A DNA stretch of 16,387 bases from positions 1 through 16,387 of the forward strand of contig DXJL01000018.1 of NCBI GenBank assembly GCA_019057635.1, given 5' to 3'. A program made the translations under genes and the position numbers. The notes beneath the pieces are model-generated. The model was given only the letters and a program-made list of their open reading frames with translations, made no database searches and had not been told where the DNA came from. Below, in pieces: positions 2,813 through 16,387 of the stretch; within the stretch, counting starts at the first letter, position 1, and each line of letters begins with the position of its first letter. This stretch comes from Candidatus Heimdallarchaeota archaeon. GTDB lineage: Archaea; Asgardarchaeota; Heimdallarchaeia; Hodarchaeales; Hodarchaeaceae.

Positions 2813-3334
2813 TTAAATTTCTTTTTCCATGAATAACCAAAAGGGTTTCATCTTTTCAAGTATTTCAGATCCATCGTATTCGTCTCTTTCAATAAACCCG
2901 AAAGAACGATACATATGAAGTGCACTTTTCATAAAAGGCGCTGTATTGAGATAAATTCTAGAAAACCCAAATTCCTTTCCTTTTTTCAGTAATTGCTCCA
3001 GCATTCTCTTTCCTAATCCTTTTCCACGAAATTTTTGCCTTATATACATCCGTTTAATTTCTCCAATATCCTTATTCATATTCTGAAGAGCACCCATACC
3101 TGCAACCTCCTCCTCTACATATAAAAGGTAAGAAATTCCCTCTGGAGGTGTAAAAAAGGCAAATTCGTGAACAATAACATCAGCAAATTCACGGTAACTA
3201 GTGTCATTAGTAGGAAGAACTTCAATATTATATTTCGTCTTTATTTCGGTGTAAACCCATGTAAAAAATTCTTCATTTAAATCAACCAGTATCGATCGAT
3301 GACGTTCTAGATCAATAATAACCAAATTTGACAT
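2813..3334 (-). CDS. GNAT family N-acetyltransferase
   Basis: GEIKRMYIRQKFRGKGLGKRML (acetyl-CoA binding motif A), SALHMYRSFGF (motif B); GGTGA Shine-Dalgarno immediately upstream of the ATG. Confidence 0.93.
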   Translation of the reverse strand: MSNLVIIDLERHRSILVDLNEEFFTWVYTEIKTKYNIEVLPTNDTSYREFADVIVHEFAFFTPPEGISYLLYVEEEVAGMGALQNMNKDIGEIKRMYIRQKFRGKGLGKRMLEQLLKKGKEFGFSRIYLNTAPFMKSALHMYRSFGFIERDEYDGSEILEKMKPFWLFMEKEI

Positions 3335-3406
3335 TACTCACCATCTTTTAGATCCATTTCAGAATTAATTCTATGCAAGACGAATAAACTTCTATCTTCT
3401 ACGGGA

Positions 3407-3417
3407 TTTAAATCTTT
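3407..3417 (-). promoter_or_regulatory. Putative archaeal BRE/TATA for the GNAT gene
   Basis: Minus strand reads AAAGATTTAAA, a purine run followed by TTTAAA, about 75 nt upstream of the GNAT start. Confidence 0.4.
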
Positions 3418-3516
3418 AACCTACTGCACAAAATCATATTGTAATACCTCACAGAGCAAACTTGACCGTATTCTAATCGATCGTGCAGTTTGTTCATATT
3501 TAACTGCTATTCCTGA

Positions 3517-6500
3517 TCATTGATTATCTTTCTGACCCTTTTTGATACCAAGCGCTTCTCGTACATATTCCTCTACTCTTTTGTGCTGTTCTTCAGATGA
3601 AAGTTGAGTATCAAGTTTCAGGATTGATTTGATGTTATTTCTAAGTCTTTCGAATTTAACTGACTCTTTCATCGCTATATCATAGAAAAGTTTCATATCC
3701 TCTTGTTGTGCAATTCTTAAGCATTTATCTATCCAATGTTCGACTTGATCAAACTGGAATGATGCAAGGTCAATTCTTGCTCTCAACAGATATACTTGAC
3801 ATAGTTGAGCGTAATATTGGTTGTTTTCACAATCATCTTGCCATTTATTCAGCATTGTAAGCAATTTCTTCTTAGTTATGGGTGAAGGATTGCTCAACCA
3901 GGTTTTAAATTCAGATGTAACGAGAGCCCCCTGACAGATTACTTGAAATTCTACATCTAAATCCTCACTATTTAACGCTGCTTCCCATTCTTTTTCTGCT
4001 GATCCCCAATTTTTCTCTGTTTCAGCAAGAAGGGCTTGAATCATGTGATGAAAAGCAAAAATGGCTGGATTTTTATATGGGGGTTCTGGAAAGCGCTGAA
4101 GGATGTGACTTCCAGGGGATAGAATTTGTGTTTCTTTTTGGAGGAGAACCATTCTAAACGATGTTTCTGCAACCATTCTATCGTTCTCTGAAAGCTCAAA
4201 CACGTCCAGAGCGGCTTCATACTGCTGGATGGAAGTCAAGAATTCACATTGAAGATAAAGTGCATTAGCCTTTTCTATTAACGATTTTGCATCTGTTTCG
4301 GTTTGCACTAATGCAATGTAATCAGTAAAACCTAATTTTTGAATTTTTACTGCAGTAGGATAATCTGGTGCCTTCAATCTCGTGATGAAATTTCTTCTTT
4401 CTGTTTCTTCCCTTAGTTTGACTATAAAAGCTGCAAGGGCTATACTAGCAATAATAATCGTCAATCCTACATGAAAAATACTAAAACTGATTATTGGAAA
4501 ACTCCAAAAATTACGAGGATTTGACCCACCTCTGTATTCGTCTACATTGAGAACCCAATCACCATCTAAGTCGATTTTTGCGTCACTTGGATCCTGTGCA
4601 TTGAGCCCCATTTTAAATTCCCAAATATCAGGCATACCATCGATGTCTCGATCATAAAAAGCGTACATCTTATCAATATGTTGAAAGTTTGGAGCAAAGC
4701 TCATTGGATTTAAGGAACCACTCTCATTATAGTTCTGTATCCAATCACGGAATACAACTAATTTCAAATCTTGATTGAGATATATATAGAGGGAATCATT
4801 TGCGGCTACTTCCTCAATATTATAGTACATTTCTCGACGAACATCAATGTCTTGTTCAATCGCTGCATCTTCGATCAGTGTGTTCAAAGATGGATTTTCA
4901 TATGAAAGTAAGGATGCATAAACACCATATTGTCCATGCAGAAATGGAGCTACAAAATTGTCTGGATCTGCATAATCTGCAGCCCATCCACAATAATTGA
5001 GAGGAATTTCCCGACCCCAAGTGACTTCATTATACTGGTCCTGGTCCATGGGTTGGAGAATTGCCTTTATTCCAACATCGCACATCACTAAGGAATTAGC
5101 TAAGGATAAGTATAAATAGGAAAGTACTTCGTTCGTAACAGGATACACTAAATTGATAGTTCCTCGCCAACCAACTTGCTCAAATAGTGTTCTGGCTGTT
5201 TCTAAGTCGTAAGAAGGAAGAAGATCATTTTCTTTCAGGTTATCATTATGACCAAGAATTCCCTCGGGGATTATCCCTTCCATCTGTTTGCCAATTCCGT
5301 TTAGAATATTATCGATATAAAACGAGTAATCAAAAGCACTAGCCATGGCTTTGCGGAAGATCACCGATGTAAAAGGATTATTTTGACTAGCATTTTCTTC
5401 ACCTTTGGAAAATCGGGACAGGAGACTAGCATCGTACAAAGAATTTTCTGATTCATTCAGAAATATTGAAGGTAAGGATTCCTTCATATTCATACCTAGG
5501 AAGAAAGTGGTTGATGTTGGAGCGGTAAATGTAGTTATTCCTTCATAAAGTGGCTCACCTGTCGGAGTGATGACGTTAAAGGCATCAGGTTTTTCTACAT
5601 ATACCATATCAGAATCTCCATTAATTAAATTTTGATAACGGGTTTCATCATCTAATTCAGATCTAATTTCAATCTCCTCGACAGAGTGCAAACTAAATGA
5701 TCCCCACCAATTTTCATTTTTCTGGAGGAGGATAGAATCCTTAGTTATTGCTTTCAATTTATATGCTCCAGATCCAATCGCGTGTTCCTTCATCCATAAA
5801 TGATAGGAATCGCTCAAACGATGCGATCCAGGGACTACACCAGAATCCTTTGGATTATGGCCAATATTCAGTCCCAATTTGGTGTAATCCGATAGGGTTG
5901 GAAACCACCTATCAAGAGGAAACATACCAAAGACTTTATCCCCATATAACAATGTGTATTCTTTTGGTTTATTTTCTATGATAGCTTTTGGGGAAACAGC
6001 GCTTCCGATATCGAATGCTAGGGAATTAATAAACGGTGAATATGCAGAATCAAGGTTGATCTCTAAGATATAATCATCTATCACAACAATTCCGCCTGCA
6101 TCAAGATAAGCTTGCGCTTCTGTATAATTAGGGTTGAAATATTGCATATAAGTCGACCCTCCTTTGATGACTTGAGCTATCATCCAAGAGGGACCCCATG
6201 GATCGTTCATAAGAATGGCTCTATCAATAGAATATTTCATCACATACGCGTTAAAAACAACACCATCGTGGAATAAAACATTCTTTCGAAGGTTAAAGGT
6301 ATATACTCGTCCATTTGGCGAGACTGTCCATCCCGTGGCTAGTCTGCCTTCAAGCTCGTCTACTGAATTTCCCTTATATCCGACTAAGGTTTCATATATC
6401 AACTCAATAACTGTACTCCCAAGGGTTTCATAGTTGATGCCTGGATCTAAGGAATCAATGCTGTTTGGAATTCCTAATGTTTCCCAAATGAATTTATCGG

Positions 6501-6651
6501 GATTTTTCAATTCCCCATTTGCCTTAGTCGCTTGAATTTCGGGTATGGAGGACTGTGTGCTAATTAAAGTACTCAAAATTAGAATTAGCAGTACAACTAT
6601 AAGAGATAAGCCATTCCGCGCTATTTTAAGTTTCACCTCGAACCGTTCCAT
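3517..6651 (-). CDS. Fusion protein: signal peptide + family-5 ABC solute-binding domain (DppA/OppA-like) + acidic DxDxD repeats + single TM helix + TPR-like C-terminal domain
   Basis: Hydrophobic N-terminus; SBP family-5 motifs SLDPG, IYETLV, LATGWTVSPNGRVYTFNLRKNVLFHDG, IGSGAYKL, FRKAMASAFDY, GWAADYADPDNF; DRDIDGMPDIWE...DLDGDWVLNVDEY at ~4520-4653; TM FSIFHVGLTIIIASIALAAFIV at ~4420-4490 followed by KLREETERR; helical-repeat-like tail at 3517-4419. Confidence 0.9.
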   Translation of the reverse strand: MERFEVKLKIARNGLSLIVVLLILILSTLISTQSSIPEIQATKANGELKNPDKFIWETLGIPNSIDSLDPGINYETLGSTVIELIYETLVGYKGNSVDELEGRLATGWTVSPNGRVYTFNLRKNVLFHDGVVFNAYVMKYSIDRAILMNDPWGPSWMIAQVIKGGSTYMQYFNPNYTEAQAYLDAGGIVVIDDYILEINLDSAYSPFINSLAFDIGSAVSPKAIIENKPKEYTLLYGDKVFGMFPLDRWFPTLSDYTKLGLNIGHNPKDSGVVPGSHRLSDSYHLWMKEHAIGSGAYKLKAITKDSILLQKNENWWGSFSLHSVEEIEIRSELDDETRYQNLINGDSDMVYVEKPDAFNVITPTGEPLYEGITTFTAPTSTTFFLGMNMKESLPSIFLNESENSLYDASLLSRFSKGEENASQNNPFTSVIFRKAMASAFDYSFYIDNILNGIGKQMEGIIPEGILGHNDNLKENDLLPSYDLETARTLFEQVGWRGTINLVYPVTNEVLSYLYLSLANSLVMCDVGIKAILQPMDQDQYNEVTWGREIPLNYCGWAADYADPDNFVAPFLHGQYGVYASLLSYENPSLNTLIEDAAIEQDIDVRREMYYNIEEVAANDSLYIYLNQDLKLVVFRDWIQNYNESGSLNPMSFAPNFQHIDKMYAFYDRDIDGMPDIWEFKMGLNAQDPSDAKIDLDGDWVLNVDEYRGGSNPRNFWSFPIISFSIFHVGLTIIIASIALAAFIVKLREETERRNFITRLKAPDYPTAVKIQKLGFTDYIALVQTETDAKSLIEKANALYLQCEFLTSIQQYEAALDVFELSENDRMVAETSFRMVLLQKETQILSPGSHILQRFPEPPYKNPAIFAFHHMIQALLAETEKNWGSAEKEWEAALNSEDLDVEFQVICQGALVTSEFKTWLSNPSPITKKKLLTMLNKWQDDCENNQYYAQLCQVYLLRARIDLASFQFDQVEHWIDKCLRIAQQEDMKLFYDIAMKESVKFERLRNNIKSILKLDTQLSSEEQHKRVEEYVREALGIKKGQKDNQ

Positions 6652-6949: not shown

Positions 6950-7852
6950 GTGATGAGTCTTCGTCCCCCCGACAATACACTAGGCTCCTGGTCTTTTCCG
7001 CGTCGAATGTTTTACCAATTGGCCAAATTAGTCGTACCCAGATTTTTACGTTTCTATTTCCGATTTGAAGCCAAAAAACTTGAACACTTAGATCAATTTC
7101 CTGAGGGAACACCTGTAATTTACTGTTTCAATCATCGATCACATTTGGATACGTTTATTTTCGCTAGTGCGTTAGTTTATCCTTTTGGTAACAGGACCGC
7201 CTGTGGTTTAATGACTAATGGAAATGTGATGGAACAAAATAAATTCTTTTACCTGCTCAAGTATTTGGGGGCATATCCCGTTTATCCCCAGAACCCTGCT
7301 CCTGCTCTCGATTATACTCTGAAGCTCCTGAATGAAAATTTAGCAGTTCTTGTCGCTCCTCAAGGGAAACGAATACCGAGTACTCCCTTAGATGATTATC
7401 ATAACATAGATAACCAAGTCAAATCAGGAGTGGGAAGGATAATATTGCGATTTAATGGAAAAATTCCTGTAATACCAATGTATATTCATGGTTCTCACGA
7501 GGCGCTTTCTTTTGGAAAAATTCTCCCAAAAATAAAGTCATTTATTTCCATTTCCATCTGTAAACCTCTTATTTTTACTGAATATACACGAGAACAAGGA
7601 TGGAACGAATCGGACCCGAAGTTTCATTCTAATGCACATACAATAAGTCAAGCGATTATGGCTTCCATCCGAAATCAGATGTTAAGTGAGGAAAAGTACT
7701 TCTTCCAAATTCTTGCACGAAAGGCAACAGTTCCAGTCGAACAATTACAACTTTCCCATCGAAAACATCCCAAAGCATATCGATTTTTTCGGAACCTATT
7801 ACAATATTCTCCTGCTGAATTAAAAAATTATTTAGATTCTAATCCCTTATAA
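6950..7852 (+). CDS. 1-acyl-sn-glycerol-3-phosphate / lysophospholipid acyltransferase (PlsC-like LPLAT)
   Basis: Catalytic NHRSHLD (HxxxxD), block II LGAYPV, block III variant APQGKR, block IV-like KSGVGRI...IPVIPMYIHG; GAGGT SD at 6941-6945 before GTG 6950 / ATG 6953. Confidence 0.9.
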   Translation: MMSLRPPDNTLGSWSFPRRMFYQLAKLVVPRFLRFYFRFEAKKLEHLDQFPEGTPVIYCFNHRSHLDTFIFASALVYPFGNRTACGLMTNGNVMEQNKFFYLLKYLGAYPVYPQNPAPALDYTLKLLNENLAVLVAPQGKRIPSTPLDDYHNIDNQVKSGVGRIILRFNGKIPVIPMYIHGSHEALSFGKILPKIKSFISISICKPLIFTEYTREQGWNESDPKFHSNAHTISQAIMASIRNQMLSEEKYFFQILARKATVPVEQLQLSHRKHPKAYRFFRNLLQYSPAELKNYLDSNPL

Positions 7853-9286: not shown

Positions 9287-9355
9287 TTAACGTTTCTTCC
9301 GAATAAATGCTAGGATAACAACCACACCAAGAATGGTAAATAAATCAAAACCAGG
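9287..9355 (-). other. PGF-CTERM archaeal protein sorting signal
   Basis: PGF + hydrophobic helix + basic tail (RKKR), the tripartite layout known for archaeosortase A substrates. Confidence 0.8.
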
Positions 9356-12300
9356 TGTTAATCCAACTACATTGTCAATGGTTATATCCACTTCATCTGA
9401 AACCGTTGTTCCCTCAATAGTAACTCGGATAGTGTAGTCACCATCATCAACTTCTTTAGTATCCCACGCGAATTGTTGGGTTTCAAAACCACTCGCTAGT
9501 TCAGTCCAGCTAGTATCATCTTCAAGTTTGTATTCTACTTTGAATGTCATAGATTCTGCAGATGTCGTAGTTGCTGTCCATTTGATGAGATAAGTCCCCT
9601 TTATTTTTACACCTTCAGTAGGATCCGTAATACTCAGTGAATATGTGATATCAGACTCAATGACTGTCACTGTTACGATATCATGCAACACAAGACCAGA
9701 AGCATCTGTAGCCGAGAAATTGTAGGAATAGACACCATCTGGTAAATCAGAAACATCTAACGTGACTGATCCTTTGCCATCCCAATTTGACACTGTTGTA
9801 ACTTCTACTCCGTCTTTTTGAATCGTATAGTCAATCGGAGGAATCATTTCAAGAACTGTCCACACTAGCTCGTGGGTTTGACCGTCATTTTCGGTAAAGG
9901 AGAGGTCATTGGGTCCAACAATGACTGGATCGCCTACGACAATAAAATCACCGTCATATTTCACTATGTGATCCAGTTCAATGTTAACACCATATATGGT
10001 AGTTACTACAAAACTAGTATAATAGGTTTCACCTTTAAAGCCATAGAAAGTATTACTTTTAGCTGTTACCGTTAGTCCAGTAGTTGTTTTTGCTGAAACT
10101 GTTAAATTAAATTCTCCATCATCAATTAAATATATGTAGACATAATAATATCCTTTATAGGGTGTCGTTACGACCACTTGTTGGGGGAAACTATTAGGTC
10201 CACTATATGTGGTATTCTCATTAGAATCACTTGTTGCTAGGGTATAGTTATAACCCGTATGCTGACTGTTTTCATCATAGAGATGCAAATGTGTTCTACC
10301 TTGGACTGTGATACTGATAAATGCTGCTTCACCTAAAGTACCGTAACTAATTTGCTGACTCAAAATAGCTAATAATGTGGCATACACAGGATCCTCAGAA
10401 CCACGTGTATTATCCCAGTACCAAAGATCAGGATCATCTGCTTCACGAATGACATGACGGGTCAAGAATTGATAGATTGATTGATACATCCAGCTATACC
10501 CTGTACCCTTATCATGGCCAGTTAATATTAGGGCTTTAGCTGCAGAAACGATGGCATAATACCGATAACCATCGCTATGGAAATAATCATCGACATACTG
10601 TTCAATCCAAGTATGATTCATGTATCTAAGAGCTTCATTGATGTCCGAATCAGTGTCGTCATAACCCATGAGGGCTAAACACCAAATACCAGCTGCGTTC
10701 ATTCGTGAGTTGACCCAACCACCATCTGGTTGATAGGCAAATCCGTAATATGTTTCTTCCAGATTAACTTCAGTGAAACAACGTCTAACAAATGTTTCAG
10801 CTGCAGTCCAAGTTTGGGCTGGAATATTGATACCGATATCTCTCGCGGCAGCTAATGCGATTATCGACCATTGACTATTAGAGAGATCAGACCAGTAATA
10901 CCCAGTTAAAGTGGCGTTATCTAGGCCATAACCCCAACCTCCATAATGTGGATTACTAGGATCATAACCCAAGGGTTCACGATTTTGAGCTCTAATCACC
11001 CAACTGACTGCATCTAAGATGATTTTATCCAAGTCTGGATTTTCAACACCCCAGACGCCGTACGACACTTTAAGTGGAATAAGACCCATTAAGGCAATAG
11101 AAGTTTCATAATTCTCTTGACCTATTTCCCAAGACATTATTGCACCATCAGACTGGACTTGAGACTTGATGTACTCATAACAGCTTTGTACAACTGAATC
11201 ATCAAATCGACTTCCATTCTGTAATAAAGTTAGCATGGCCCAAGAAGTAAATGCCACTGATCTCGAACCTGGATCATCATGACCTCTCCAATCCTCTCGC
11301 GACCAGATATATGACCCATCTGGTTGTTGTTGTGAGATAATCCAATTGAGTCCGTTATTGATAAGCTCATCTGGAGGAGGAGTGGGATCATCGAATATCG
11401 TGACTGGTATTACCATTGGTTGTTGATTATGAGCAACATCTGTGGCTATCACAGTTAAGTCACGAGAACCTATCCAGTCAGATTTTGGGTAAAGATGCAC
11501 ATAAACATGTCCGTCAAATAATCGTAACTCAGTTATGTTCGCTGGACCTGTCCACTCAGGCTGCGAATAATACTTCCATGGATCAGTTGAAGCGAGAGGC
11601 GCACTGAATCCAGAAAGGAATACATCGACTCCCAGTACTCCGCTAATGTCATCAGTAATATTTGCTTCTAACTTAAAACCGAATTCATCACTAAGAGAAG
11701 CACCACTTTCAGGGGATATGATTTGGACTATTGGCCCTGTGTTATCTATGCTTGGTTCAGCTGTTAAGGTATACTCCCCTTTCACGGGTATACAGAATTG
11801 GGAACGTGGTACATATTGGATTGTAAGTAACGCCCAAATATCTGGACCATATTTGTACAAAGAGAAGTATTCGGTACGATTTGCCCAAATTTCCTCTGAA
11901 TAACGATAATCTGATTCAAAACCCCACCAAGGAGCAGAGAGATTGAGTGTTTGATGAATTATCCTATAATCTTGTGGGACAAGATAAGATACCGTGTCGT
12001 AGGGGAAATCAAATCCTATGGGTTCTAATGTGACATTAAAGAGGTTAAAAGGTGATAAATTGTCACTAATGTTGAACCAATAACTTATTTGGTCACCAGT
12101 CCATAGTGTTTCAGTTGTAGTGAACGGGAATCCGTTTGTATAATCTGGTAATGGGTCAATATCTTCCTGTAAAAGTGCGTTCGCGTGAGTAAAGTAGTTT
12201 TCAACATAAAATTCTCCATAGTATTCGGCAGTAATTGGACGTCCCCAGATATTTATGTAATTCCATTGTGTGAGGTTTAGATTTGGGTAACTGACATTAC

Positions 12301-13597
12301 CAAGAAAGATATCATCATCAAACACAGTACTAATTGTTACTAACTGTCTAATATCGAACCATAGATCAACATTGGTATTATTACCTTTCATAAACCATGA
12401 TGTATTAGTAGCGAAAAGATTGAATCCTGGGTCTCGCCATTCACTAGTATACAGCTCAGCATTGAATTCATACAGCCCATAGACCGTGAAATTCACTGGA
12501 ATTGACACTATAGCAAAATCAGCTTCGCCATTGCTATCGATATCTTCAATCCTCATTTGCCAAGTGGAGTTATCCTGATTATACAGAATTTCAGGCATAT
12601 TTGTCTCTTTAGGAATTAATGGGGTGCTAGTTATGTATGGACTCTCCATATACCAACCCATTTGATAATCCCATCCTTCTAAATCCTCGTCCCAAATATC
12701 TATTCTGGCATCGTTAATTTCGAAAGGTCCATCTCCAGTTACTTCTGTGGATGCCCACCAAAGATCTATATAACTGACTCCTTTAGAAACCATTGTCAAA
12801 TTATATTTCTCTTGCGAACCAGTCATAAAGCACTGTAAACGAATCCATCTTTCGTGAGTTGAATTTACTTCTGCTATAATATGGATTAAATCATAATAGC
12901 CATCATTTTCTATATCCACAAAATCTTCACTCCATGATTGTACAAACGCTCTGATCATCATTTCGAACTGGTCGGCAGAATAAGCTAGAGTCGATGTAAA
13001 GATAGTTGGACCGGCTTGATCCATCGTTCCAATCATCAATGCGACATCAGGTAAGTCCTGCGGGTTTTCAAAATCATAGTTGCTCATATCATAGAGGATC
13101 AAGTTAATTATACCAAGATGGCCATCCATCCCTGTAGCATTTATTTCCAAACCTCGAAATGCGAGTGTTATTGTGATATTTTCGTTGATAGTGTCACCTA
13201 TATATGCATCAGTCATATCAGTGACTTCTCCAGCGTATAATCGAAAATCCTGTCCAATAACATAGGGGAAAGGATTCTGAGGTGACGGTATAGCAGATAA
13301 ATTCAAACCTGAAACAAGAAAATACTGACCCACAATGTGGATTTCTAGAGTTACATTAATGTAGAAAAAATCATATAATCCATCTTCATCGAAATCAAAA
13401 GTCCCATCTACAATAGAATCCAAGTAGATTGTAGCATTTGGACCGTTTTCAGCCGTTGAAGAACGAAGTTGGGGAGTGTTATAAGAAGTAGTACTGGGAT
13501 CTCTTGAAGAAACTGTAGTTATCGGAATCAAAGAAAGGAATAGCATGAAAATACAGAGAATACCCAAAATACTGGTTTTTAATTTCATATTCTTCAT
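9287..13597 (-). CDS. Large cell-surface protein with prenyltransferase/squalene-cyclase-like (alpha/alpha) barrel, Ig-like domains and PGF-CTERM anchor
   Basis: Signal peptide MKNMKLKTSILGILCIFMLFLSL; three acidic DxxxDG-like loops; barrel repeats GLNWIISQQQPDGSY, YEYIKSQVQSDGAI, AVSWVIRAQN...GGWGY, SDLSNSQW, GFAYQP at ~10350-11375; C-terminus TPGFDLFTILGVVVILAFIRKKR; many NxS/T sequons. Confidence 0.88.
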   Translation of the reverse strand: MKNMKLKTSILGILCIFMLFLSLIPITTVSSRDPSTTSYNTPQLRSSTAENGPNATIYLDSIVDGTFDFDEDGLYDFFYINVTLEIHIVGQYFLVSGLNLSAIPSPQNPFPYVIGQDFRLYAGEVTDMTDAYIGDTINENITITLAFRGLEINATGMDGHLGIINLILYDMSNYDFENPQDLPDVALMIGTMDQAGPTIFTSTLAYSADQFEMMIRAFVQSWSEDFVDIENDGYYDLIHIIAEVNSTHERWIRLQCFMTGSQEKYNLTMVSKGVSYIDLWWASTEVTGDGPFEINDARIDIWDEDLEGWDYQMGWYMESPYITSTPLIPKETNMPEILYNQDNSTWQMRIEDIDSNGEADFAIVSIPVNFTVYGLYEFNAELYTSEWRDPGFNLFATNTSWFMKGNNTNVDLWFDIRQLVTISTVFDDDIFLGNVSYPNLNLTQWNYINIWGRPITAEYYGEFYVENYFTHANALLQEDIDPLPDYTNGFPFTTTETLWTGDQISYWFNISDNLSPFNLFNVTLEPIGFDFPYDTVSYLVPQDYRIIHQTLNLSAPWWGFESDYRYSEEIWANRTEYFSLYKYGPDIWALLTIQYVPRSQFCIPVKGEYTLTAEPSIDNTGPIVQIISPESGASLSDEFGFKLEANITDDISGVLGVDVFLSGFSAPLASTDPWKYYSQPEWTGPANITELRLFDGHVYVHLYPKSDWIGSRDLTVIATDVAHNQQPMVIPVTIFDDPTPPPDELINNGLNWIISQQQPDGSYIWSREDWRGHDDPGSRSVAFTSWAMLTLLQNGSRFDDSVVQSCYEYIKSQVQSDGAIMSWEIGQENYETSIALMGLIPLKVSYGVWGVENPDLDKIILDAVSWVIRAQNREPLGYDPSNPHYGGWGYGLDNATLTGYYWSDLSNSQWSIIALAAARDIGINIPAQTWTAAETFVRRCFTEVNLEETYYGFAYQPDGGWVNSRMNAAGIWCLALMGYDDTDSDINEALRYMNHTWIEQYVDDYFHSDGYRYYAIVSAAKALILTGHDKGTGYSWMYQSIYQFLTRHVIREADDPDLWYWDNTRGSEDPVYATLLAILSQQISYGTLGEAAFISITVQGRTHLHLYDENSQHTGYNYTLATSDSNENTTYSGPNSFPQQVVVTTPYKGYYYVYIYLIDDGEFNLTVSAKTTTGLTVTAKSNTFYGFKGETYYTSFVVTTIYGVNIELDHIVKYDGDFIVVGDPVIVGPNDLSFTENDGQTHELVWTVLEMIPPIDYTIQKDGVEVTTVSNWDGKGSVTLDVSDLPDGVYSYNFSATDASGLVLHDIVTVTVIESDITYSLSITDPTEGVKIKGTYLIKWTATTTSAESMTFKVEYKLEDDTSWTELASGFETQQFAWDTKEVDDGDYTIRVTIEGTTVSDEVDITIDNVVGLTPGFDLFTILGVVVILAFIRKKR

Positions 13598-13996: not shown

Positions 13997-16387
13997 CTAG
14001 GGATCACGAGAACCAGGTTTGTATCTTTTTATTTTGCGTGTGAAGAACACTAGTATCCCCAAAAATGAGAGTAGGATAAGGAAGTCAGGAAAAGAACCTG
14101 ATTTAGGAACAGATACCCCGGTTGGATTTGCTTCTATTTCATCTGAGAATTCACTCTCTCCTATAGCGTTAATCGCTGTTACTACATAAAAATAAGTTAT
14201 CGCACCTACTACAAGTGTATCGTTAAAGTTCGTTGTTGCTGTTGTTCCCACAAAGATGTATTCTCCACTTGTGGTACCACGATAGATAATATACCGTATA
14301 ATAGCAGATTCGCCATCATTACTAGGAGAAATCCAAGCTAAATGCACAAAATTAGCACCTACAGTATATGAAAGAGACTGAGGAGCACTGGGTGCGGTCA
14401 TCACAATTTCTGGACTTCCTAAAGGAATAACACTCACTTCTACTGAAAAAATACCTTCTCCGACACTATTAACCGCGGTAACTACATAATAATACATTGT
14501 TCCTCCAAAAACTGTAACATCAGTAAAATTAGTATTTGTGGTGGCGCCTAAGAACATATATTGACCACTTATGGTGCCACGGTAAACATTATATCGAATA
14601 ATAGCAGAACCGCCATCATCACTAGGGATAGTCCAAGTGATTATAGCAGAATTATCCCCAGGAGTAGCAGAGAGGCTTAGAGGAGCATTTGGTATGTAAG
14701 TAGCTACATCCTTAATAACAACAACATCCCTAGATACAAGTCTACCCCATTCATCTTCAACGTAGAATCTTATAACAACATAACCATTTGGAAGAGCACT
14801 CCACAAGGCTTGATCTATAGTTCCAGTCAATTGAGTAAATGTGATATTAGTAATTCCTCCATCAATCGTGTACCACATTGATTCTAGAACAGGCTCATCG
14901 ATAAAAATATCAAATTGGGGTGCAAAATGTCCAAAAGTAGAACCAGTTAAAGGAGCAATTATCGTGATCACGGGTACAGTGATATCTTTCATCACAACGA
15001 CAATTGACTCTCTTATATGCCCATATAAATCACTCGCAAAGAATTTAATGGTGACTAAGCCCTCTTCAGTGTTATCCCATATTATTTGGTCTATTGAACC
15101 GTTATCAGTAAATACTTTGATCATTCCTTCAATTTCATACCACATTTCCTCTAAATTCTCGTCTAATATCACAACAATAAAGTTAGGAGGCTCTGCTTCG
15201 AAAAATTGACCAGAAAAAGGGCTATTTATTGTCACATCAGGTGCGCTTAAATCAAATGAAATGAGGGGATAAAAATCTTTATTCTCAGCTGTACCTGATA
15301 TATTATAGGGTTGATCAACTATTCCATCTCCATCATCATCGAGAGTTAAATGATCATCCCAATAATTTCCATATTCCCCGTTATCCCAAGAATTATTAAT
15401 ACCATCATCAAGAGCATTAATTGTATTGTGGATGAAGGAATTAAAGAAAATGAAAACATCAATAGTATTAGAATCTAGTTGAATACCATACCCTTCTACT
15501 GCACCTGTACAATTATTTAATGAATTTTCAGAAATATTAGTTTGTTCTGTCGATACTGCGAAAATTCCCCGTCCAACACCATAAATACCCCAACTACCAC
15601 CCCATGGTAAATTTCCACGTTTTCCCCCAGTCATATTTAGAATTATGTTGTGGGTAATTACATTATTATCTGAATTTGAAAGATATATTCCATTACCAGC
15701 TCCACCAGTACCACCAGGACGCTGTAATCCCCCAGCTCCGCCCTCTCCTCCCACAACATGCATTATGTGGTTATCGGTAATTGTTAAATTATTAGATTCG
15801 AGAATAAAAATCCCATTACCATCACCACCATTACCACCAGGATTATATCTTGGACCCGATTTACCCCCTTGACCTTCATGGTATGCAAGGGTATTGTTGC
15901 TGATTGTTAGATTAGAACAGTAGACAATCGAAATTATCCCTAAATTTGTAGGATTAACTGAACTTGTAAGAACGTGGTCTTTGATAATAACATTGCTAAT
16001 ACCATAAAAATAAAAAATCAACTCTCCATCAACATAATTATTTAAAGCAATCAGATTTTGATAGCTATCGCTTTTGAAATAAAGGCCATTACCAGTAGTA
16101 TCCGCTCCTGCCGCAGAAATACCTGCAGATGGAGCACCTTGTCCTCCAATGATGGATGTAAGCGTATTATTGTGTAATATATTTGTGATAGAGGATTCAA
16201 AGTAAAACCCTGCTCCAATTCCTCCTTCTCCTCCTGTGTAACCATTTCCTGGTCCACTTTTTCCATTACTTCCAATAATGTTGTTTATACTATTATTAGT
16301 AACTTGATTATTCCTAGAGTTCTTAAAATAAATACCACTCCCAATCCCACCTGATCCTCCATCACCACCATAACCAGAGAATCCTCC
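13997..16387 (-). CDS. Cell-surface protein: NosD/CASH-like parallel beta-helix with Gly-rich loops, 2 Ig-like domains, 2 fibronectin type III domains, C-terminal TM anchor; 5'-truncated by the window edge
   Basis: The frame of ORF 13997..16021 is open for another 122 codons to the window end (GGFSGYGGDGGSGGIGSGIYFKNSRNNQVTNNSINN...LNNYVDGE). Beta-helix rungs GIYLSNSDNNVITHNII; cap NSWDNGEYGNYWDD...DGDGIVDQPY...DFYPL; FN3 motifs WxxPSxDG..I.RY..YRG and YYYVVTAVN; anchor GSFPDFLILLSFLGILVFFTRKIKR. Confidence 0.9.
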   Translation of the reverse strand, partial: GGFSGYGGDGGSGGIGSGIYFKNSRNNQVTNNSINNIIGSNGKSGPGNGYTGGEGGIGAGFYFESSITNILHNNTLTSIIGGQGAPSAGISAAGADTTGNGLYFKSDSYQNLIALNNYVDGELIFYFYGISNVIIKDHVLTSSVNPTNLGIISIVYCSNLTISNNTLAYHEGQGGKSGPRYNPGGNGGDGNGIFILESNNLTITDNHIMHVVGGEGGAGGLQRPGGTGGAGNGIYLSNSDNNVITHNIILNMTGGKRGNLPWGGSWGIYGVGRGIFAVSTEQTNISENSLNNCTGAVEGYGIQLDSNTIDVFIFFNSFIHNTINALDDGINNSWDNGEYGNYWDDHLTLDDDGDGIVDQPYNISGTAENKDFYPLISFDLSAPDVTINSPFSGQFFEAEPPNFIVVILDENLEEMWYEIEGMIKVFTDNGSIDQIIWDNTEEGLVTIKFFASDLYGHIRESIVVVMKDITVPVITIIAPLTGSTFGHFAPQFDIFIDEPVLESMWYTIDGGITNITFTQLTGTIDQALWSALPNGYVVIRFYVEDEWGRLVSRDVVVIKDVATYIPNAPLSLSATPGDNSAIITWTIPSDDGGSAIIRYNVYRGTISGQYMFLGATTNTNFTDVTVFGGTMYYYVVTAVNSVGEGIFSVEVSVIPLGSPEIVMTAPSAPQSLSYTVGANFVHLAWISPSNDGESAIIRYIIYRGTTSGEYIFVGTTATTNFNDTLVVGAITYFYVVTAINAIGESEFSDEIEANPTGVSVPKSGSFPDFLILLSFLGILVFFTRKIKRYKPGSRDP
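14123..14692 (-). repeat. Tandem duplication of the FN3 domain (300-nt period)
   Basis: PNAP begins at 14692 and PSAP at 14392; DNA similarity is visible, e.g. ataatagcagaaccgccatcatcactagg vs ataatagcagattcgccatcattactagg. Confidence 0.85.
14708..15253 (-). repeat. Two tandem ~90-aa Ig-like repeats
   Basis: Shared pattern P.(V/I)TI..P..G..F....P.F...I....LE.MWY.I.G...G.IDQ..W.....G.V.I.F...D..G......VVV.KD in both copies. Confidence 0.8.

Follow-up and report, generated by a model that had tools for sequence, protein, structure and literature searches.

The window analysed here, 16,387 nucleotides of contig DXJL01000018.1 from the assembly GCA_019057635.1 of a Candidatus Heimdallarchaeota archaeon (Hodarchaeales), carries at positions 3517-6651 an open reading frame (ORF) of 1044 codons followed by a stop codon (3517-3519). 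The ORF list and the translation place it on the minus strand as a single uninterrupted frame, the plus-strand frame of the same interval being riddled with stops. An earlier note on this DNA had described one ORF with a signal peptide, a solute-binding protein domain, an acidic linker, a transmembrane helix and basic residues; these parts, together with the three peptides that it quoted, are all present in the translation, and the strand had to be corrected to minus. The encoded protein joins a family-5 solute-binding domain, through a stalk and one predicted membrane helix, to a tail that resembles a tetratricopeptide repeat (TPR) solenoid. We describe its architecture, its relatives and their genomic context, and we discuss whether it may act as a receptor.

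All parts of the gene are given below in window coordinates on the minus strand. Residues 1-41 (6529-6651) resemble a signal peptide, beginning with basic residues and continuing with a hydrophobic core (residues 15-30) and then ...IQA/TK; the N-terminal Kyte-Doolittle peak spans the 19-residue windows starting at residues 6-19, and a comparable hydrophobic 15-mer is present in all 11 scanned fused homologues that start with Met. Signal peptide and export location are read from sequence features. Residues 42-660 (4672-6528) form a family-5 (cluster C type) solute-binding ectodomain, whose Pfam core at residues 99-574 (4930-6357) matches SBP_bac_5 (PF00496) at an E value of 1.5e-58 and 199.2 bits, against a cut-off of 32.4, over profile positions 1-364 of 368; a whole-genome family search gave identical coordinates. 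Among proteins of solved structure, those nearest to it in sequence are HbpA (6ofq, 3.4e-25), DppA and NikA. The NCBIfam equivalogs that would assign a substrate class all score below their cut-offs (at best nikA, 92.9 bits against 393; Opp4A, 68.6 against 650; DppA, 63.7 against 1005), and the ligands of family-5 binding proteins also include nickel, opines and oligosaccharides, as stated in the available parts of a review (PMC8050422). The peptide that the earlier note took to be sensed is thus only one candidate ligand.

Residues 661-714 (4510-4671) constitute an acidic stalk, recognized by composition and motif scan, with the thrombospondin-type-3 (TSP3)-like calcium motifs DRDIDGMPDIWE and DLDGDWVLNVDE. 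The TSP3 calcium-repeat consensus is of the type DxDxDGxxDxxE, of which the stalk holds one strict copy at residue 667 and a second, degenerate one near residue 693; Asp and Glu together make up 23% of the linker at residues 650-705. The NCBIfam model throspo3_MtsD matches residues 664-713 weakly (E 9.9e-5, 20.6 bits against a cut-off of 800), and PF18884, which is present in the relatives P0020 and P0026, gave no match at E<=0.01 in the window protein. The stalk ends in an NPxxFWSxP motif that is found family-wide, the column consensus of 56 relatives before the helix being D.DGDwvsN.dE...GsnPrdFWSvPl.SfS. Residues 715-748 (4408-4509) are the sole internal hydropathy peak and, with the signal-like N-terminus, one of only two hydrophobic segments in the Kyte-Doolittle scan; they are read as a single transmembrane helix and are followed by the basic residues KLREETERRNFITRLK. 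The remaining 296 residues (749-1044; 3520-4407) form the predicted cytoplasmic tail, supported by an AlphaFold2 model and by fold and profile matches, which opens with a conserved juxtamembrane LKAPDY..TA.KI motif and continues as a solenoid. No Pfam domain was found in the tail at the usual thresholds. As for an anchor of the PGF-CTERM/Heimdall-CTERM kind, the window protein gave no NCBIfam Heimdall-CTERM match and has 296 residues beyond its helix. The signal-like start, the extracytoplasmic domain and stalk, the lone internal helix and the long tail support the type-I, single-pass topology that the earlier note had proposed.

The joining of these parts in one gene recurs in other genomes. 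When the tail by itself served as query, 20 proteins of comparable length were retrieved, 13 of which also carry PF00496 and, where complete, comprise 1028-1049 residues; the 13 fused database clusters derive from several sources. Four orthologous loci in named Heimdall/Hodarchaeota assemblies hold genes of 1039-1047 codons, with whole-protein identities of 94, 85, 75 and 54%. One orthologous locus is located on a closed 3.16-Mb chromosome, and orthologues occur in at least nine further genomes of the window's genus. Read mapping across the junction had been proposed as a check for a chimera, and the junction proved real, as the helix-coding segment is bridged by single contigs in three DNA runs, each from a different study (X1, 3300-5763; X2, 3932-4897; X4, 4065-4878). 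In addition, a 253-nt contig from one metatranscriptomic RNA library spans positions 4382-4633, the stalk-helix-tail junction, without mismatch; DNA carry-over is possible, and we regard this contig as a weak hint of transcription. The idea that a binding-protein gene and an unrelated gene downstream of it have been fused artificially by assembly or gene calling could appeal to the fragmentation of the source genome (214 contigs), but it is so improbable as to be negligible in view of the uninterrupted frame, the identical architecture in the 13 clusters and on the closed chromosome, the contigs of three studies that cross the helix-coding segment, and the conservation of stalk, helix and tail alike, and a chimeric assembly is excluded.

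When provided with a 57-row alignment, AlphaFold2 modelled the tail as an all-helical structure of 14 helices (predicted local distance difference test, pLDDT, 92.8; predicted template modelling score, pTM, 0.87), in which about 11 long helices form a solenoid followed by a C-terminal capping helix; the model obtained from the single sequence was unusable (pLDDT 42.5). The former model was compared by VIA-align with 48,161 representative chains, and TPR proteins fill nearly all of the 50 best matches listed, with Z scores of 16.0-11 over 200-250 aligned residues. The top matches are TSK/BRU1 (16.0), an APC subunit (14.8), NprR (13.6), PlcR and LGN (13.3) and the transmembrane anti-sigma factor DdvA (13.0), and since helical repeats readily reach Z scores of ∼13-14, these values are evidence for the fold class only. 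Foldseek against the PDB also gave TPR proteins throughout the matches listed, with a best E value of 4.2e-3 and therefore nothing at E<=0.001, phmmer found no match to the tail at E<=10 among solved structures, and the ESM Atlas returned generic bacterial TPR clusters only. The window tail stays below the Pfam TPR cut-offs (TPR_MalT, 14.6 bits against 45; TPR_2, 14.4 against 27; TPR_12, 10.5 against 30.1). A profile built from 14 tails matches TPR proteins of engineered consensus sequence, with E values from 7.7e-24 to 1e-7, and TPR_12 is detected in 11 of these 14 tails at E<=1 (best 2.5e-6). The agreement between the fold model and the 14-tail profile thus supports the assignment of the tail as a divergent TPR-like solenoid, in line with the helical-repeat, TPR-like tail that had been surmised from the sequence. 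The ratio of nonsynonymous to synonymous substitution rates (dN/dS) for the two orthologues with unsaturated dS is 0.108 and 0.074 in the tail, versus 0.245 and 0.117 in the binding domain, and tail identity equals or exceeds ectodomain identity in all four orthologues. The tail is under purifying selection and is no dispensable appendage.

When 1.84 billion cluster representatives were searched exhaustively with the tail by phmmer, 155 of them matched at E<=0.001, including 51 at E<=1e-30, and these relatives split into membrane proteins (class 1) and soluble proteins (class 2). A hydrophobic segment ends at most 20 residues before the tail in 72 of the 75 relatives whose match covers the tail start, and wherever a class 1 match reaches the tail end, the tail is C-terminal, except in P0037. 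Among 43 class 1 ectodomains scanned with Pfam, 32 are WD40 propellers, one is a NosD beta-helix, one consists of TSP3 repeats only and nine, several of them in short proteins, contain nothing known; a signal-like N-terminus is present in 29 of the 40 long class 1 members that start with Met. The median number of strict calcium motifs is six in non-fused members versus one in fused members. Minimal forms also exist, P0051 and P0061 consisting of helix and tail only, and P0047 and P0068 of the same with one stalk repeat added; a locus search with P0061 yielded a spurious bacterial match only. In databases, the WD40-type relatives are named "WD40 repeat protein," "eIF2A-related protein" or "hypothetical protein."

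Class 2 comprises 53 soluble candidates, 48 of which lack any hydrophobic segment, and phmmer ties them to the tail at E values down to ∼1e-28. TPR_12 is found in all 26 class 2 proteins scanned, and TPR_MalT matches overlap the tail-like stretch. Output modules are attached to some of them, namely HisKA and HATPase_c in P0070 and a C-terminal winged helix in P0072, P0108 and P0114; these soluble Hodarchaeales proteins, homologous to the tail and carrying histidine kinase or winged-helix modules, appear together with P0137 to constitute a set of TPR-based one-component-like regulators. An organism source name was available for five of the eight class 2 proteins looked up, and all five are Hodarchaeales or Promethearchaeota. 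The tail has a narrow distribution: at E<=1e-10, it occurs in 15 of 301 sampled genomes of the Asgard phylum, all from the window's own GTDB genus within the Hodarchaeales (14 of the 20 other members and the window's genome), and in none of the 280 genomes sampled outside that genus. Copies range from one to five per genome, with one in the window's genome. The fused homologue P0009 bears the source name "Candidatus Thorarchaeota archaeon," which may reflect a binning or naming problem given the absence of the tail from the 280 genomes outside the genus.

The non-fused members of the family offer a clue to the fused one. We called ORFs in 17 loci around all 18 non-fused tail genes of the genus sample and marked tails by phmmer and family-5 genes with a hidden Markov model built from standalone relatives; neighbours were clustered and representatives were checked against Pfam. 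All 18 genes encode a WD40-type ectodomain, and in 11 of the 16 cases in which the upstream side is visible, a family-5 binding-protein gene directly adjoins the tail gene. The neighbour is on the same strand, 8-145 nt upstream, in 10 cases (L008, L010, L011, L013, L015, L017, L019, L020, L021 and L023), of which L021 has its family-5 gene cut by the contig end and assigned by BLAST clustering alone, and it is divergent in L009. Three types of partner binding proteins occur, of ∼645, ∼710-735 and 796 residues, the last being 48% identical to the window ectodomain and its closest standalone paralogue with a visible genomic place. In L012 (5516-6580, plus strand) and L014 (10036-11901, minus strand), the upstream binding-protein gene is replaced by one for an exported protein of no known family, which in L014 has a signal-like start, a Thr-rich linker and a PGF-like anchor at its end. 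The partners that were read, nine family-5 proteins and both unknown proteins, all have a signal-like start and, except for that of L012, a PGF-like anchor of their own. A neighbour of binding-protein type is lacking in L022 and for both tandem tail genes of L024.

Many of the paired loci come from related genomes with a shared ancestry, so the count of 11 in 16 overstates their independence; the pairing recurs with three types of binding protein and in several tail clades. Queries with OppB and OppC of this genome detected no OppB/OppC-like permease in 22 loci, in which the only ATP-binding cassette (ABC) ATPase domains are generic ones belonging to exporter-type or other genes. Because 11 of 16 WD40-type genes adjoin a family-5 gene and no permease is found in the 22 loci, the window protein reads, on the basis of gene order, as the fused (cis) form of a conserved, transporter-independent two-gene module.

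Other genes recur near the WD40-type tail genes. A ParA/MinD-like P-loop ATPase gene (in L010 at 5223-5972, plus strand; AAA_31, 1.9e-21) is present in L010, L011, L015, L017, L012 and L022; it is convergent and directly follows the tail gene in four loci and lies 2.4-4 kb downstream in two more. The gene for a 181-residue protein adjoins it in L010 (4654-5199, plus strand) and likewise in L011, L015 and L017. Judging from this gene order, the TPR tail may have the ATPase as a partner in the cytoplasm. As an obligatory partner it was rejected, the window's genome holding only distant ParA/MinD-like homologues (30% and 26% identity), and the 181-residue protein has no homologue there. Just downstream of the WD40-type tail genes, L016 (2140-4554, minus strand) and L023 (10772-13282, plus strand) encode soluble proteins of 804-836 residues that combine TPR_MalT/TPR_12 with a carbon-nitrogen hydrolase.

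How the fused form arose can be approached from both of its halves. The nearest standalone relatives of the ectodomain are 670-810 residues long and 32-52% identical to it, and those with a named organism come from Hodarchaeales, Promethearchaeota or Hermodarchaeota. C-termini were read in 13 complete ones. In 11 of these, a PGF-like motif precedes a helix and several basic residues, in most cases behind a Thr-rich linker, and the other two (P0184 and P0188) have a different terminal domain and lack the C-terminal helix. The last part of the fold, ESGSLNPMS..PNF, is common to the fused and the standalone proteins, after which the fused ones continue as stalk, helix and tail. In two tail trees with the soluble class as outgroup, the fused forms are a single clade amid WD40-type tails (Shimodaira-Hasegawa approximate likelihood ratio test, SH-aLRT, 100; bootstrap/SH-aLRT 100/100), which is consistent with the fusion having arisen once, on a cassette that already existed. 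The immediate sister of this clade is a polytomy in both trees, and the data are compatible with the gene having arisen by fusion to the particular neighbour that is present in the genome G062.

The other genes of the window encode an alpha/beta hydrolase, an MFS transporter, a GNAT protein, a PlsC-like acyltransferase (6950-7852, plus strand; Pfam Acyltransferase, 2.6e-12), an OYE-type flavoprotein and two giant surface proteins. One of the latter (9287-13597, minus strand) is a putative surface protein of 1436 residues that contains Big_7 Ig-like domains but matches nothing in NCBIfam, and the other (13997-16387, minus strand) combines NosD/beta-helix and fibronectin-III domains and runs off the window end. 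The PlsC-like gene adjoins the fused gene in the window, in L003 and in L004, is one gene away in L005 and is absent from the most distant locus, L006; its side and orientation vary. No tRNA gene was detected in the window and no ABC permease or ATPase gene either, and the lack of such flanking genes, which the earlier note had pointed out, extends to the four orthologous loci.

We propose, with a probability of roughly 0.5, that the window protein is a receptor or sensor in which the binding domain is coupled across the membrane to the TPR tail without any enzyme. This proposal is based on the fact that the pairing and the fusion, apart from ABC transporters, match the genomic signature of binding-protein-dependent receptors. 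In our working model, a two-lobed family-5 domain would stand outside on a short calcium-binding stalk, the helix would cross the membrane, and the ∼290-residue TPR solenoid would provide a protein-docking surface inside. Capture of a ligand would close the binding domain, closure would shift the position or the self-association of stalk and helix, and this change would in turn alter what the tail binds in the cytoplasm, whether a partner or itself. The binding of a ligand, the coupling step and a cytoplasmic partner are what we infer for the window protein.

Several observations weigh against a sensory role. The WD40 propellers with 2-13 calcium repeats that predominate in the family fit adhesion as well as sensing, and what the conservation of the gene pairs demonstrates is a link in function rather than signalling. 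Scans with Pfam and NCBIfam found no kinase, methyl-accepting chemotaxis protein (MCP) signalling, cyclase or DNA-binding domain in the tail, in agreement with the prior claim that it has no enzymatic output. Given that minimal forms exist, the tail may be a membrane-tethered scaffold that receives no input from an ectodomain. Furthermore, the neighbourhood of the fused gene is conserved no further than the PlsC-like acyltransferase, so that context suggests no partner. Finally, Opp/Dpp transporters are encoded elsewhere in this genome and in five of five related genomes.

The last point leads to the possibility that the protein is still a transport binding protein, serving a distant Opp/Dpp-type importer, with a TPR tail that only places, stabilises or regulates it. 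The ectodomain is after all a complete SBP_bac_5 domain, standalone members of its subfamily at 37-45% identity adjoin Opp-type ATPase genes (G115:C47, G181:C52 and G190:C227), and the oligo_HPY matches number 6-12 in each of the five related genomes with a fused gene that were tested. A candidate importer is also at hand in the genome's sole detected Opp/Dpp-type operon, on contig C187 (L002; 1441-8537, minus strand), which consists in order of two permease genes, two ATPase genes, a 361-residue gene without a Pfam match (3549-4634) and, last, a binding-protein gene. This operon, however, has its own binding protein, with 26% identity to the window protein over 139 residues and an end made of a Thr-rich linker and TPGFE-helix-RRKRK (Heimdall-CTERM, 20.8 bits against a cut-off of 24). 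The fused gene lies beside a permease gene in none of five loci, in G102 and G241 every Opp ATPase gene is over 100 kb away from it, and the genes of the WD40-type pairs show no transporter logic. A tail of 296 residues that is more constrained than the ectodomain would moreover be a costly anchor, when standalone relatives make do with a PGF-type anchor of ∼30 residues. We therefore consider a role in transport unlikely, though by no means negligible.

Equally improbable in our estimation is a structural tether, that is, a cassette that fastens binding or adhesion modules to a cytoplasmic structure and thereby organises the surface or cell-cell contacts, with no information passed. Such a tether would account for the dominance of WD40 propellers and long runs of calcium repeats and for the helix-plus-tail forms without an ectodomain; the ParA/MinD-like gene that immediately follows the tail gene in four loci and is no more than 4 kb away in two others could be seen in the same light, as could the fact that the window's other large genes encode surface proteins. 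Conversely, a small-molecule binding domain would be an odd adhesion module, and the partner genes mostly encode binding proteins that need no tethering because each brings its own anchor. The tail's soluble cousins have the build of regulators, and the window's genome contains only distant ParA/MinD-like genes and no homologue of the 181-residue protein.

If the sensor proposal is extended from the window protein to its relatives, a genus-specific mode of enzyme-free signalling can be imagined, in which binding proteins feed single-pass receptors, either docked on the WD40 propeller or fused in cis, whose sole output is a TPR adaptor platform; this would resemble the adaptor-based receptors of eukaryotes more than two-component or chemotaxis systems. 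We offer this extension tentatively, as it is rather more doubtful than the sensor proposal itself. To our knowledge, transmembrane sensing in prokaryotes proceeds almost solely through kinases, chemoreceptors, cyclases and anti-sigma factors. Binding proteins coupled through one helix to a bare docking domain would, if confirmed, represent a different route for information or attachment across the membrane. Hodarchaeales are an archaeal order regarded as among the closest to eukaryotes, and the family thus occurs in an Asgard group that is studied for the origin of eukaryotic cell organisation. Even if the tail does no more than position a transport protein, what is left is a clear instance of natural gene fusion, and this fusion points to a partner for otherwise unexplained extracellular WD40 proteins. 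The ectodomain, the tail and the paired genes are now defined and can be expressed separately, which makes the idea testable.

Full-text literature searches, covering main texts, returned no description of a stalk-helix-TPR family. The one paper found to name both Hodarchaeales and the tetratricopeptide refers to the latter only as a promiscuous repeat, and neither "tetratricopeptide" nor "fused" appears in the portions of the review PMC8050422, on binding proteins in signalling, that were at our disposal.

The closest known counterparts of the window protein are the WD40-stalk-helix-TPR proteins of the same genus, which share with it a stalk with calcium-type motifs, the FWSxP motif, the single helix, the LKAPDY motif and a tail of ∼290 residues (33-48% identity). 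They differ in their propeller ectodomain, in the larger number of their strict calcium motifs and in that their binding protein is encoded by a separate neighbouring gene. Archaeal Opp/Dpp binding proteins, as exemplified by that of C187, likewise have the SBP_bac_5 fold, a signal peptide and a membrane tether; whereas the C187 protein terminates with a Thr-rich linker that leads to a PGF-like motif, then a helix and RRKRK, and belongs to an operon with two permeases and two ATPases, the window protein continues through a stalk and a helix into 296 further residues, and its gene lacks transporter neighbours. The tail itself recalls the RNPP regulators (NprR, PlcR, Rap and AimR), the MalT-type TPR proteins, LGN/Pins and DdvA, with which it shares a superhelix of helical hairpins at VIA-align Z scores of 11-16. 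The likeness in sequence exists at the profile level only, the TPR domain is here tethered to the inner face of the membrane behind an ectodomain, and a shared TPR fold shows no function.

Single-pass receptors with a Venus-flytrap or propeller ectodomain are familiar in eukaryotes, as in the receptors for natriuretic peptides, the family of the LDL (low-density lipoprotein) receptor and integrin alpha. The window protein resembles them in overall plan, namely an ectodomain for binding a ligand, one helix and, in the cytoplasm, a portion that would work through bound adaptors; their binding domains are of another class and their cytoplasmic domains unrelated, and we compare the plan alone, no homology having been sought.

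Binding-protein-dependent receptors provide the nearest functional parallel. In the parts of the review PMC8050422 available to us, those using family-5 proteins include DppA-Tap, CBP-ChiS and AibA-TlpB, with genes that are often neighbours, and other pairs are LuxP-LuxQ and, in Halobacterium, BasB-BasT and CosB-CosT; binding-protein genes that adjoin sensor kinase genes are also reported in the available text of PMC11113362. In such receptors, the binding protein reports to a membrane protein, either in place of a transporter or in addition to one, and the genes often adjoin each other, as in 11 of the 16 WD40-type loci. The known receptors terminate in a kinase, a cyclase or the signalling domain of a chemoreceptor, unlike the bare TPR solenoid found here. 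In the family described here, moreover, the WD40 propeller would be the sensing surface, and the window protein carries its binding domain in cis, as a fusion. Binding-protein-coupled membrane receptors are a known kind, and the bare TPR output is what would be new here.

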